DNA of 4,112 nt from Escherichia coli (GTDB lineage Bacteria > Pseudomonadota > Gammaproteobacteria > Enterobacterales > Enterobacteriaceae), in assembly GCF_036507355.1 (NCBI RefSeq), contig NZ_AP027884.1; one strand, given 5' to 3'. How positions within the stretch are numbered: position 1 is the first letter of the stretch; each line of letters begins with the position of its first letter. A model generated the notes under the pieces. It searched no databases. It saw only the letters and a program-made list of their open reading frames with translations, and was not told where the DNA came from. The position numbers and the translations under genes were made by a program. This document shows positions 1 to 4,112 of the stretch, piece after piece.

Positions 1-104
1 TAATGAGAGCAGAGATAGCGCTGATGTCCGGCAGTGCTTTTGCCGTTACGCACCACGCCTTCAGTAGCGTAGCAGGAAGGACATCTGATGGAAATGGAAG
101 CCAC
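1..104 (-). CDS. insA: IS1 InsA, 5' portion (GTG start at 104; frame runs off the window start and resumes at 4112)
   Basis: Reverse-strand translation [34 protein letters not shown] matches the InsA N-terminus (MASVSISCPSCSATDGVV...) including the CxxC zinc-finger cysteines. Confidence 0.85.
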
Positions 105-136
105 GCAAGCACCTTAAAATCACCATTATACACTAA

Positions 137-159
137 ATCAGCAAGTTGGCAGCATTACC
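137..159. repeat. IS1 terminal inverted repeat (IRL)
   Basis: Reverse complement begins GGTAATGCTGCCAACTT, the canonical IS1 terminus. Confidence 0.85.
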
Positions 160-294
160 CGCGAGGTGACCAATCGGGTTCCTCATGGGAATAAAAACTG
201 CTGCAGTTGGCCCAGTGCCACGGAGAATCAGTTAGGCAATGGAAGGGTAATAAATAGAACTGACTGCCCTTATTCACTTGAGGTTTATCGGGAG

Positions 295-317
295 GCCCGC
301 TATTAGCGGGCTTTTCT
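295..317 (+). terminator. Putative rho-independent terminator (GCCCGC-tatta-GCGGGC followed by TTTTCT)
   Basis: 6-bp GC-rich perfect stem, 5-nt loop, T-rich tail on the plus strand; lies between the IS1 end and the 3' end of the convergent Wzz-like gene. Confidence 0.5.
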
Positions 318-369
318 GCATCTGGCGTGTAACGGATGTTGCTAGAATACGGTTATTAATCGTTACAGG

Positions 370-1038
370 CTAATAAAAAGACCTGTTTAACTTATTTTTA
401 TATTCAAGTATAGATCTTTTTATTATATGATACGAGGAGGAAAAGATAACGGCTATAATTAACGTTAGAGCCATAATTAAAGCTGGTTTATACTTTTTAT
501 TCACTATTTCATTATTTATTGAAATGAAGTTTTTTTCTCCGGTGGTGTTTATTTTTGTTAATAATGCAACTTTTGCATATGTTTCAGTGCCATTTATATA
601 GTTGCTGTCCTGGTTGTTAACTATGCTTTTATAAGTTTTATAATCTTGGATGTACCAGTCATCAATAGCTTTATGGATAGCGTTTACTTCAGCGGTAATC
701 AGTGGTTTGTAACGGTCATCACCAGCCCATGACAGGATTATTTTTTTTCCTTTTTCATCTATATTTGATGTTATAGACTTGCTTTTATTGTTTATAATTG
801 ATTGTATGATATTCGCTTTACAATAAAAGTCAGACCCACAGTTAATAATCATACTTGGTGAATTAGCGATCATATTTAATTCGTACTTTATATTTATTTT
901 GTTTTTGTTTATCAGTAAGAAAATAGATGACAAAATCAATGAGAAAACAACAAACAAAATAATACTCACGATTTTTTTCTTAAGAAAGAGAAATAACTCG
1001 ATGAAATCAATATCAGGTGAATTGTTTTCCATTTTCAT
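370..1038 (-). CDS. Short Wzz/Cld-like polysaccharide co-polymerase family protein (222 aa, bitopic membrane protein: N-terminal TM, about 140-aa periplasmic domain, C-terminal TM)
   Basis: A 669-nt ORF in roughly 25% GC DNA, where stop codons are frequent, is very unlikely by chance. The N-terminus MKMENNSPDIDFIELFLFLKKKIVSIILFVV parallels the Wzz motif M..ENN...IDLI(D/E)LL.QLW.GK..II followed by a TM helix. The C-terminus KPALIMALTLIIAVIF plus short basic tail parallels the Wzz C-terminal P-rich/TM segment. Hydrophobic stretches at about residues 23-43 and 186-206. Confidence 0.55.
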   Translation of the reverse strand: MKMENNSPDIDFIELFLFLKKKIVSIILFVVFSLILSSIFLLINKNKINIKYELNMIANSPSMIINCGSDFYCKANIIQSIINNKSKSITSNIDEKGKKIILSWAGDDRYKPLITAEVNAIHKAIDDWYIQDYKTYKSIVNNQDSNYINGTETYAKVALLTKINTTGEKNFISINNEIVNKKYKPALIMALTLIIAVIFSSSYHIIKRSILEYKNKLNRSFY

Positions 1039-1130
1039 ATACCAACAATAGTTATTAAATTATAGCTTAAATAAATAAATAAAATTAAAATAGCCGTGAT
1101 GAATATTTTCGCTGATTTAGTATATTTCAT
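1035..1130 (-). CDS. 31-aa hydrophobic micro-protein (MKYTKSAKIFITAILILFIYLSYNLITIVGI), predicted single TM; stop overlaps the Wzz-like start (ATGA)
   Basis: Hand translation of the minus strand: ATG at complement of 1128..1130; TGA stop shares 2 nt with the ATG of the 370..1038 ORF, the arrangement typical of translational coupling. Below the ORF-track size cutoff. Confidence 0.45.
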   Translation of the reverse strand: MKYTKSAKIFITAILILFIYLSYNLITIVGI

Positions 1131-1282
1131 TTTAAAATCCAATCAAATAAAAACATTTTACCTATTATTTAGGTGTGAGAAAACTCCTAAAATCAATTTT
1201 TTTTTGTTTGTTTTTTGTTCGGTTATGTCTATGGAGAGAGTTGTTATCAGCCTGTATCCTTTCCACATATTTTAAGATCTTC

Positions 1283-1860: not shown

Positions 1861-2062
1861 TTTCCGGCCTTTCTTGACCTCCGCTCCATCTCGTTACCTC
1901 GTCATTCGTGAGCCGGTACCGCTCGCCGCAGCCGAACGACCGAGCGTAGCGAGTCAGTGAGCGAGGAAGCGGAATATCTCTTGTATTGCATCTTCTGCTG
2001 ACGCGCCGGTGCCTCCTTTTTCTCCTGCCACATGAAGCACTTTCATAAAGTGTTACTCCACC

Positions 2063-2130
2063 GTAGCATATTGAGCCCATATACACTCCGCTAGCGCAAC
2101 GTGACTGGTTCAGGGCTGCGCCCCGAAACC
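2063..2130. other. ColE1/pMB1-type bom/oriT-like (nic region) sequence
   Basis: catatacactccgctagcgcaacgtgactggttcagggctgcgccccga parallels the pBR322 bom region ccagtatacactccgctatcgctacgtgactgggtcatggctgcgccccga, which lies between ori and rop in pMB1 derivatives. Confidence 0.6.
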
Positions 2131-2164
2131 CTCTAACAACCTCTCAGCTACTGGATATCACCCC

Positions 2165-2314
2165 ATGCCATCTGAATATGATGAACAACTGGATTCGACT
2201 GATACGCAGCTTCCCGGCGAATATGACCTTTTTGATTTAATGGCGCAGGTTACTGAAGAGAACCTGCACGCCCCGGTGGATTTTGGGCCGCCTGTCGGCC
2301 GTGAAGTGTTATAG
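2165..2314 (+). CDS. Hypothetical small acidic protein, 49 aa (MPSEYDEQLDSTDTQLPGEYDLFDLMAQVTEENLHAPVDFGPPVGREVL)
   Basis: Hand-translated ORF immediately downstream of the bom-like segment; no clear Shine-Dalgarno; no recognised family. Could be a chance ORF. Confidence 0.25.
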   Translation: MPSEYDEQLDSTDTQLPGEYDLFDLMAQVTEENLHAPVDFGPPVGREVL

Positions 2315-2338
2315 CTTTTTCGCTTATCCGCGTACGTG

Positions 2339-2413
2339 GTAATACGCCGGTATTACATCTTATTTCTTTATTTTCATGTAATTACAGGTGGTTGTAATAC
2401 GTTGCGTATTACA
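2339..2413. promoter_or_regulatory. Cluster of three palindromic operator-like sites sharing a GTAATAC/TGTAAT half-site
   Basis: GTAATAC-gccg-GTATTAC (2339..2356); TGTAATTACA (2377..2386); TGTAATACG-ttg-CGTATTACA (2393..2413). All arms are perfect. Confidence 0.5.
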
Positions 2414-2580
2414 TAAATAAACGGGGACTTCAGTTTTTACCTTTTAATTCATGCAATTGCGATGAAAATCGCGGTTGCGTATGGTGTATGACCATTTAAG
2501 GGATAATGTAACCTGACTTTTAAAGAATGAATCTATCTTTGGTAGCGCATGAGATCGATAAAAAGCGTTCCACATCAGGC

Positions 2581-2600
2581 GGTTCATGGATACATGAACC
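2581..2600. promoter_or_regulatory. Perfect palindrome GGTTCATG-gata-CATGAACC
   Basis: 8-bp perfect inverted arms with 4-bp spacer, immediately upstream of the phased direct-repeat array. Confidence 0.45.
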
Positions 2601-2603
2601 GGA

Positions 2604-2684
2604 AAGGACAAAAATAAGACAATTGTAGGACATTTTTTGCGTTTTACTCTTATTTTTGGACTATTATGAGACAAATGTAAGACA
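2604..2684 (+). repeat. Iteron/operator-like array: two sets of three 7-bp direct repeats (consensus T-R-R-GACA) at exact 11-bp spacing, separated by a 30-bp gap
   Basis: AAGGACA 2604, TAAGACA 2615, TAGGACA 2626; TTGGACT 2656, TGAGACA 2667, TAAGACA 2678. Spacing of about one helical turn; the array ends 14 bp before the ATG at 2698. Confidence 0.6.
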
Positions 2685-2697
2685 TTATGGGCGGTAT

Positions 2698-3066
2698 ATG
2701 GCGAATTTTAACCCTGGTCCAAGAACAGCCATTGCAGCTGTCAGGGATTCCAAGAACGATATAGAAACCTGGAAGAAAAATGGTATCCGTAGGGAAGAGA
2801 TTGTGACTGTACTGAATAAACGTTACGGCCTGAATATCTCACTGGTTGCGTTTGATAAGGCTCTTTACAGATTGAGAAAAAGTACAGATGAACCGTCTCT
2901 TGCTGATGTGGATTCTGTGTCTGCTGCAGAAACGAATTTCTCTGAAGCCAGTGGGCCTGAAAATGGTTTTTTTCTGTCCGGGAATGACTTCATGCGAGCA
3001 GAAGAAGAATCTCAAAGAATGGTTGAGTCATTCAGAGATAGCCTTGGCAGGAAGAAAGGATTCTGA
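2698..3066 (+). CDS. Hypothetical protein, 122 aa from ATG 2698 (ORF track extends to a TTG at 2656); basic N-terminal half, acidic C-terminal tail; possible DNA-binding protein
   Basis: Open frame of 120+ codons directly downstream of the phased repeats; N-terminal segment NGIRREEIVTVLNKRYGLNISLVAFDKALYRLRK is HTH-like by eye; no family recognised with confidence. Confidence 0.5.
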   Translation: MANFNPGPRTAIAAVRDSKNDIETWKKNGIRREEIVTVLNKRYGLNISLVAFDKALYRLRKSTDEPSLADVDSVSAAETNFSEASGPENGFFLSGNDFMRAEEESQRMVESFRDSLGRKKGF

Positions 3067-3272
3067 TTTTGAATTCTAAGTAGTGAAATAGTGGATCCTC
3101 TACTCGAAATTGTCGGATACCTGCAATTACCTACCGTGCCTTACGGCTTGGTCAATGCCTCACGGCCACGCAATAAATTGCGTCCCCGTTCACCGTTTTC
3201 GGATAAGAAGAACATCGGAAACAGGACTTACCCCGGCTGAATGGCGTGAATTTCCGCGCTATGCACTTGCGC

Positions 3273-3284
3273 GCATACTCATGC
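3273..3284. promoter_or_regulatory. Candidate ArgR-box-like palindrome (GCAT-actc-ATGC) in the Xer accessory region
   Basis: Palindrome centred about 109 bp upstream of the XerC arm, where cer-type sites carry an ArgR site; sequence only loosely resembles the ARG box consensus. Confidence 0.3.
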
Positions 3285-3386
3285 ATGCCGTAAAAACAGA
3301 GCCTGCGCGTTTCTGGCGGGTTTTCGGGTGGTTTGTTGCCTGTTTTACCGGTTTCCCGTCAGAAACGCCCTCAGCGCCTCTCAGGC

Positions 3387-3414
3387 GGTGCACGCAACGG
3401 ATGTTATGGTAAAT
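3387..3414 (+). other. Xer site-specific recombination site (cer/psi-like multimer resolution site): XerC arm GGTGCACGCAA, 6-bp central CGGATG, XerD arm TTATGGTAAAT
   Basis: XerD arm is identical to the cer XerD arm; XerC arm differs from psi (GGTGCGCGCAA) at one position; 11+6+11 layout. About 200 bp of potential accessory sequence lies upstream. Confidence 0.6.
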
Positions 3415-3432
3415 CCAGCTGATTGGCAGGTA

Positions 3433-3458
3433 CAAAAAAGCCCCGCAGGGCTTTTTTG
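3433..3458. terminator. Bidirectional rho-independent terminator (AAAAAA-GCCC-cgca-GGGC-TTTTTT)
   Basis: Stem flanked by an A-run upstream and a T-run downstream, between the Xer site and the IS1 right end. Confidence 0.6.
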
Positions 3459-3503
3459 CTATGAGTTAGCCATATTTTCGTGCGAATTTTTCATCGGAAT
3501 CGC

Positions 3504-3526
3504 GGTGATGACTCCAACTTACTGAT
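3504..3526. repeat. IS1 terminal inverted repeat (IRR)
   Basis: GGTGATGACTCCAACTTACTGAT, the canonical IS1 terminus. Confidence 0.85.
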
Positions 3527-3914
3527 AGTGTTTTATGTTCAGATAATGCCCGATGACTTTGTCATGCAGCTCCACCGATTTTGAAAACGACAGTGACTTC
3601 CGTCCCAGCCTTGCCAGATGTTGCCTCAGATTCAGGTTATGCCGCTCAATGCGCTGCGTATATCGCTTGCTGATAACGTGCAGTTCTCCCTTCAGGCGTG
3701 ATTCATAAAGCGGCCAGCCATCCGTCATCCATACCACGACCTCAAAGTCCGACAGCAGGCTCAGAAGACGCTCCAGTGTGGCCAGAGTGCGTTCACCGAA
3801 TACGTGCGCCACAACCGTCCTCCGAATCCTGTCATACGCGTAAAACAACCAGCGCTGGCGTGATTTAGCGCCGACGTAACCCCGCTGTTCGTCCATTTCA
3901 GCGCAGACAATCAC
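3519..3914 (-). CDS. insB: IS1 InsB (shown from first in-frame ATG; in IS1 the transposase is the InsAB' fusion made by -1 frameshift at the A6C motif, here complement of about 3959..3967)
   Basis: ORF-track protein [28 protein letters not shown]...HYLNIKHYQ matches IS1 InsB; the TTAAAAAAC slippery motif is present on the minus strand just upstream. Confidence 0.9.
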
Positions 3915-3940
3915 ATCACCGCCCGGTTGTATGCGCTAGG

Positions 3941-4112
3941 TTACCGACTGCGGCCTGAGTTTTTTAAGTGACGTAAAACCGTGTTGAGGCCAACGCCCAT
4001 AATGCGTGCACTGGCGCGACATCCGACGCCATTCATGGCCATATCAATGATTTTCTGGTGCGTACCGGGCTGAGAGGCGGTGTAAGTGAACTGTAGTTGC
4101 CATGTTTTACGG
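3941..4112 (-). CDS. insA: IS1 InsA, 3' portion (stop codon = complement of 3941..3943)
   Basis: The frame continues from the window start; 34 codons + 1 junction codon + 57 codons gives 91 aa plus stop, the InsA length. C-terminal sequence ...[16 protein letters not shown] is followed by TAA. Confidence 0.85.

Follow-up and report, generated by a model that had tools for sequence, protein, structure and literature searches.

IS1 normally produces 8-9-bp direct repeats of its target. The capacity of this element to promote adjacent deletions and to form cointegrates reportedly goes back to the classical E. coli genetics of Reif and Saedler, and of Ohtsubo, Iida and colleagues, and one fixed end combined with one variable end is what IS-promoted deletions or fusions of replicons classically leave behind. 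Small plasmids also exchange modules that are bounded by Xer sites, as exemplified by cer in ColE1 and by the pdif modules of Acinetobacter, and breaks of homology at Xer cores are familiar in small-plasmid mosaics. Recombination at cer is directional, toward the resolution of direct repeats (PMC5357621), and missing target duplications around IS elements are classically due to adjacent deletions or to recombination between IS copies (PMC11708052).

The stretch of DNA analysed here (4112 bp in full, hereafter the window) has an IS1 whose two sides come from different plasmid types. In common with classical IS1 deletions and cointegrates, this locus pairs a conserved junction with a new one, lacks a target duplication and has lost the intervening DNA. 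It departs from them in that its flanks derive from two replicons, in that reduction of the fused molecule apparently proceeded via a shared cer region and not by IS1 x IS1 resolution, and in that the event is reconstructed from comparative sequence and not observed. As in Xer-bounded modules, the plasmid types cease to be homologous precisely where the XerD arm ends on its outer side (position 3414); unlike two-site dif modules, the window holds one Xer site, and its other boundary is an IS1 end. The joint is as such an ordinary instance of an already known kind of IS rearrangement, which calls for no new mechanism.

In its structure the window is a small circular E. coli plasmid of the ColE1 type, in which lie the following features:

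370..1038, minus strand: GNVR-domain gene (222 aa), cargo of the GNVR-type plasmid module
1324..1425, minus strand: RNAI of the ColE1-type replicon (Rfam RF00106, 101.6 bits)
2165..2314, plus strand: 49-aa ORF, annotated in RefSeq relatives as an AbrB/MazE/SpoVT-family protein
2656..3066, plus strand: 136-aa ORF, a 122-aa hypothetical protein in the annotation of L002 and L022

The surroundings of the GNVR gene (370..1250) have a G+C content of 27%, versus 48% for the backbone. Positions 2066..2144, which align locally to a pBR322 segment, are a putative ColE1/pBR322 bom (oriT)-like stretch, and relatives of the plasmid are typed 'mobilizable' without having a relaxase. The 49-aa ORF looks like a MazE-like antitoxin of which only the C-terminal part is present; no toxin gene adjoins it, and it returned no Pfam match at E<=0.01. 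The 136-aa ORF, for which Pfam gave no significant match, is kept in IS1-free relatives.

The IS1 element occupies 768 bp across the record junction (3504..4112 + 1..159), and is made up as follows:

3504..4112, minus strand: first part of IS1 (IRR end, insB frame and the start of the insA/insB overlap)
3936..3938, minus strand: TAG stop codon interrupting insB (SVT*RIQ), shortly after the A6C motif
1..159, minus strand: second part of IS1 (5' part of insA and the IRL end, ...GTTGGCAGCATTACC)

IS1 elements are about 768 bp long and have imperfect terminal inverted repeats of about 23 bp that start GGTGATG/GGTAATG; the copy here agrees with this in its 768 bp and in repeats that match at 18 of 23 positions. 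With 90.4% full-length identity to K-12 IS1A, and 96-99% to the IS1 copies of related plasmids, it is a divergent iso-IS1. In IS1, a -1 frameshift at an A6C motif joins insA and insB' to encode the InsAB' transposase. Here insA can be read as an open frame from a GTG start (85..104), and the A6C motif at 3959..3968 is intact. Because insB carries the TAG stop, the transposase is a pseudogene, and the copy is IS1 by descent and, as its reading frames predict, nonfunctional.

Outside the element, the two flanks begin with unlike sequences:

3495..3503, no strand: 9 bp outside the IRR end, CGGAATCGC
160..168, no strand: 9-mer next to the IRL end, CGCGAGGTG, with which the GNVR-plasmid target begins

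The original prediction, made from the letters of the window, held that these 9-mers do not match and that no target duplication surrounds IS1. This is correct, as the 9-mers agree at only 3/9 positions in register. No repeat made of flank bases alone was found when either end was moved by as much as 6 bp and lengths of 7-14 bp were tried, and within the 40-bp flanks, which have a longest exact common word of 5 bp, there is no repeat of at least 6 bp. The true flanking repeat is only 3 bp long, CGC (3501..3503 and 160..162), and is at chance level (1/64). The only near-matches, CGCGGTG[A] versus CGAGGTG[A] with one mismatch, were rejected, as they need 4-5 bases of the inverted repeat of IS1 itself. 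The right flank CGCGAGGTGAC bears some resemblance to the left junction, CGC followed by GGTGATGAC, again at chance level. An empty-site alignment, combined with a different placing of the ends, could have overturned the prediction, and as no duplication emerged from either, the observation stands.

Alignments with IS1-free plasmids set both IS1 ends to the base. In L010 and L011, which are free of IS1, the empty left site reads ...CATCGGAATCGC and passes directly into ATAGATAAAT; in L004, L013 and L014, likewise free of IS1, the empty right site reads ...AATGGAGAT and passes into CGCGAGGTGACC. The two empty sites lie in unrelated sequences and the flanks are nowhere adjacent. Neither the 8-9-bp duplication nor the contiguity of flanks in an IS-free relative that simple insertion would entail is found here. 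In IS1-free plasmids, CGCGAGGTG occurs once. The segments on either side of IS1 are:

3415..3503, plus strand: TM2-type segment (terminator-like hairpin and TM2 3' end), absent from GNVR-type plasmids
3466..3503, minus strand: TM2 remnant, the last 38 bp including the stop codon, as aligned to the intact gene in L011
160..278, plus strand: right-flank segment, found in L004/L013-type GNVR plasmids only

In L010 and L011 the left flank runs on into the TM2 gene, and in L004, L013 and L014 unrelated sequence precedes the right flank. The intact TM2-domain gene encodes 100 aa (Pfam TM2, E=9.5e-20 for an intact homologue), and many small plasmids from Klebsiella, Enterobacter, Citrobacter, Salmonella and E. 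coli have it directly beside cer. Sequence from 160 onward, the right flank, lies on the downstream side of the GNVR gene in a few plasmids of the GNVR type, and in those of the L004/L013 type 88 bp separate its segment from the inverted repeat of an IS1-family remnant. GNVR-type homology to the window extends from 160 (L004) or 279 (L005, L006, L008) via ori to 3414, the last base of the XerD arm, after which it breaks abruptly; TM2-type and L009-type homology extends from about 3153 through the cer core up to the IS1 junction. Given these opposing spans, the plasmid is a mosaic in which the part between 160 and cer is a GNVR-type replicon and the part between cer and IS1 is TM2-type, with IS1 as one joint and the cer region as the other. 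IS1 lacks a duplication because its two sides stem from different plasmid types that were joined there. The further prediction of a rearrangement at or through IS1, in place of simple insertion, is thereby borne out, in that the flanks come from two unrelated contexts and one junction is widespread while the other is lineage-specific. The material missing at the joint by comparison with L004 amounts to 704 bp (a 36-42-aa ORF, the 478-bp IS1-family remnant and the 88 bp spacer), and on the TM2-plasmid side all has been lost but cer and 89 bp. TM2-type small plasmids (4663-bp unit) carry wzz(fepE) and GNVR-type plasmids carry the GNVR gene, so both parental types bear genes related to O-antigen chain-length regulators.

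The joint opposite IS1 falls in a region with the following parts:

3153..3386, plus strand: cer accessory region common to both parental types (93-98% identity)
3387..3414, plus strand: cer-like Xer core GGTGCACGCAA-CGGATG-TTATGGTAAAT, its architecture compared with PMC5357621

Sites of the cer type, at which recombination depends on XerCD, ArgR and PepA, consist of an 11-bp XerC arm, a central region of 6-8 bp and an 11-bp XerD arm, with about 180 bp of accessory sequence upstream, and by this architecture 3387..3414 would be classed as a cer-type Xer site. The central region here is 6 bp long, compared with 8 bp in ColE1 cer. The stretch upstream of the core (3153..3386) is conserved among many ColE1-like plasmids.

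The junction pair of the window recurs in six relatives, namely four complete plasmids and two metagenome contigs (L023 and L026). The complete plasmids are L001 (p713Rt_4, NZ_CP080073.1), L002 (pCE35-5, NZ_CP139187.1), L003 (p2017.12.01CC_5, AP027812.1) and L022 (ES4 plasmid2, NZ_JCAPUO010000003.1). All four are of the same lineage as the window. The first has an extra 16-bp deletion inside its IS1 and is 100% identical to the window outside that element; the other three have backbones 90-97% and IS1 96-99% identical to those of the window. The junction is thus found stably inherited in a lineage whose backbones differ by 3-10%. All IS1 copies of this lineage are transposase pseudogenes, of which those in the window, L001, L002 and L022 have the insB TAG stop in common, and PGAP notes an 'internal stop' in L021 and L022. 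L003 is without the insB stop and has frameshifts instead; because it nonetheless has both junctions, the stop is younger than the joint. In L023 the flanks of IS1 (101..868) are 99-100% identical to those of the window, whereas the IS1 itself is only 92.4% identical, a mosaic which either gene conversion by another IS1 or collapse of the metagenome assembly would produce.

The left junction, CGGAATCGC abutting GGTGATGACTCC, is identical in three independent contexts: the window lineage, L024 and the L009 group. L024 is a metagenome contig with a full-length IS1 that is 98.2% identical and encodes an intact 167-aa InsB; its right flank is AGTTAACTT, followed by a sulfatase-family (phosphoethanolamine-transferase-like) gene, and its ori is only 71% identical to that of the window. 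In the L009 group, the first 96 bp of the TM2-inserted IS1 are kept and are cut by an IS903-like inverted repeat (GGCTTTGTTGAATAAATCAG...). These 96-bp stubs are found at:

L009, 1591..1686
L012, 581..676
L018, 3065..3160
L019, 582..677
L025, 340..435

The plasmids with these stubs bear genes that are annotated, by annotation only, as phosphoethanolamine transferase. We considered L009-type plasmids as relatives of L024 and rejected this, there being no DNA homology past the cer-TM2'-IS1 stub; L024 was likewise rejected as an assembly chimera of window-type and L027-type sequences, since its ori/rop backbone is close to neither (71-72% identity). Only the window lineage has the right junction, and the 12-15 database records with the GNVR-side site either have the junction pair of that lineage or, in all other cases, are empty there. 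One junction is hence fixed across contexts while the other end is variable, with three continuations, which is the pattern of an IS-promoted deletion or cointegrate. Going by this distribution, we infer that the left junction is older than the right.

In PLSDB (72,556 records) and 5,426 complete E. coli genomes, the predicted parental and reciprocal junctions matched empty sites only, and an exact-pattern scan of 100,044 representative genomes for the reciprocal junctions gave zero matches. A parental TM2::IS1 insertion with CGGAATCGC duplicated was not found in PLSDB, in the 5,426 E. coli genomes or in the 100,044 representative genomes, and a metagenome scan for the left junction yielded four contigs, among them no parent with a duplication.

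Related plasmids have also undergone IS1 events of their own. The IS1-family remnant of the GNVR-type plasmids is a different and internally deleted member with an insB-like 131-aa ORF; in L004 it wraps the record start (3627..3627 + 1..477), and it is flanked by a proper 8-bp duplication, CAGAATCT (3619..3626 and 478..485). At the position of this remnant, L015 and L016 contain the element in full length, annotated there as an IS1 family transposase. Another GNVR plasmid, L007, has an independent IS1 (1933..2700) that is also without a duplication, with CACTGAAATGGC on one side and TGTATTTCAGCT on the other; one of its flanks is found 111 bp beyond cer, the other falls within the insA-like part of the IS1-family remnant, and the flanks hold an inverted CTGAAAT motif. 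In p3-S1-CAM-01-C (L027), the IS1 at 2277..3044 shares with L024 the right junction, where AGTTAACTT precedes a phosphoethanolamine-transferase-like gene, but not the left one, and it too has no duplication. L028 has the same right junction, and the left junction that it has in common with L027 is situated in the GNVR-type post-cer module at 63 bp from the cer core; the IS1 of both is about 7% different. L028 (2233..3000) has the same small-plasmid segment between IS26 copies inside a 198-kb IncHI1 tet(X4) plasmid.

The history we favour, at a probability of about one half, is a fusion with a GNVR plasmid driven by IS1 transposition, followed by reduction in the cer region. A TM2-type plasmid would have received IS1 in its TM2 gene, at 38 bp from the 3' end of the gene, and if the original insertion did hit this gene, then 3495..3503 would be one copy of the duplication. 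The IRL end may then have attacked GGAGAT^CGCGAGGTG of a GNVR-type plasmid by replicative transposition, to yield a cointegrate in which IS1 and the cer region are each present twice, as direct repeats. Recombination between the two cer regions, by XerCD at the core or by RecA anywhere in the approximately 260 bp of shared sequence, would release two circles. One of these would read cer - TM2' - IS1 - CGCGAGGTG - GNVR - ori - cer, exactly the order of the window, and the other, presumably lost, would have taken with it both reciprocal junctions. The scheme agrees with how cer, TM2' and IS1 are oriented in the window and in L004/L011. Reduction of the fusion requires a crossover within 3153..3414, where the informative sites are equally close to the window in both parental types and do not discriminate; because of this equal similarity, an XerCD exchange at the core and a RecA crossover in the 260 bp or so of shared sequence are indistinguishable. 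Fusion in the cer region with an IS1 adjacent deletion thereafter would be an alternative order with the same product. As cer is directional toward the resolution of direct repeats, fusion by IS1 and then reduction at cer is a natural order. The mosaic structure, its two breakpoints and the split into shared and private junctions are directly visible in the alignments; the order of events and the enzymes are what we infer. Later decay of IS1, through the insB stop, would have frozen the structure.

The nearest competitor, which we hold to be possible but less probable, is a RecA crossover between two IS1 copies, one in the TM2 gene and one at CGCGAGGTG in the GNVR plasmid, each at first with a duplication of its own; a second exchange in the cer region would have reduced the fusion and left a hybrid IS1 with one flank from each parent. 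L024 and L027 share a right junction while their left junctions differ and their IS1 bodies are about 7% apart, and the IS1 of L023 resembles K-12 IS1A over roughly bases 97-672 and the window copy at its right end, a conversion tract unless it is an assembly artefact; the patterns in L027 and L023 suggest that IS1-IS1 recombination or conversion also operates among these plasmids. Recombination of this kind is, moreover, a standard cause of missing duplications (PMC11708052). Against it, two independent parental insertions are required and neither is seen in the records searched, and the window IS1 has no obvious two-parent mosaic by comparison with L024, from which it has 14 scattered differences, nor a clear switch point relative to L024 or L027, comparisons that discriminate poorly for the window copy. 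Recombination between copies is commonly described for IS26 and IS1 in resistance plasmids, and such cases the locus resembles in having an IS at a module boundary, mismatched flanks and mix-and-match combinations (L024 versus L027), while it differs from them in that neither parental insertion with its own duplication was found for the joint in the window. An adjacent deletion down to CGCGAGGTG by an IS1 inserted in TM2, within a single ancestor that had both the TM2 and the GNVR modules, would dispense with a second plasmid and with the cer step; it is the simplest two-step history, and the pattern of a fixed and a variable end fits it. We nevertheless consider it improbable, because no record was found with both the distal TM2 gene and the GNVR-side target, and because nested deletions from one ancestor leave the cer-TM2'-IS1 unit of L024, on its 71%-identical backbone, unexplained. 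In all GNVR-type plasmids, moreover, the post-cer module starts directly at the Xer core, where the window has TM2-type sequence. Records with hits in two places were considered as dual-module ancestors and rejected, since the 3 inspected of 4 each proved to contain a single plasmid type in multimeric or duplicated form. The deposited sequences of L029 and L030 repeat the 4663-bp TM2-type unit in tandem.

Two further explanations would make the missing duplication trivial, and to both we attach almost no weight. It might be supposed that IS1 inserted simply and that the duplication was mutated away, or that the ends were misplaced, given that the lineage has diverged (90-97% between members) and that its IS1 is decaying; the few in-register matches and the failure of 6-bp shifts to produce a repeat speak against this, and the empty sites, situated as they are in unrelated sequences, refute it. 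A chimeric assembly of two plasmids through the IS1 repeat might equally be suspected, as IS repeats commonly misassemble and as L023 and L024 are metagenome contigs. The junction pair is, however, present in four complete plasmids, sequenced independently and originating from different hosts and countries, as well as in two metagenome contigs, and for this reason the junctions are not an assembly artefact.

It is tempting to suppose that the IS1 event also removed rop and the mob genes, as the original prediction had proposed. This inference has to be corrected, since IS1-free relatives with the same ori-to-cer backbone are also without these genes. No rop was detected by tblastn in the IS1-free plasmids L004, L005, L006 and L008, and no relaxase is annotated in L005, a plasmid collinear with the window between 279 and the cer core (3414). 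Where this plasmid group does have rop, in L017, the gene sits between ori and cer, whereas the DNA that the IS1 joint has removed would lie beyond cer, outside this interval.

For annotation, the missing duplication rightly flagged IS1 as a recombination joint, and the plasmid types that contributed to it could be reconstructed. The plasmid provides a further documented case of cryptic ColE1-like plasmids, with cargo related to surface polysaccharides, being reshuffled at IS1 copies and cer sites. The recurrence of cer-TM2'-IS1 on different backbones is mildly interesting and could reflect a combined IS1-plus-Xer route by which cargo is regularly reshuffled among enterobacterial small plasmids, three contexts being too few to claim it. 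More speculatively, and with rather long odds, the unit of cer, TM2 remnant and IS1 might act as a recurrent docking device for ColE1-like plasmids, by IS1 cointegration and Xer/cer resolution. If so, then each hybrid among the small plasmids of enterobacteria would retain the replicon and cargo of the target, and cargo such as GNVR/Wzz-like and phosphoethanolamine-transferase-like genes would be subject to regular shuffling by IS and Xer together, in a manner comparable to the pdif modules of Acinetobacter.
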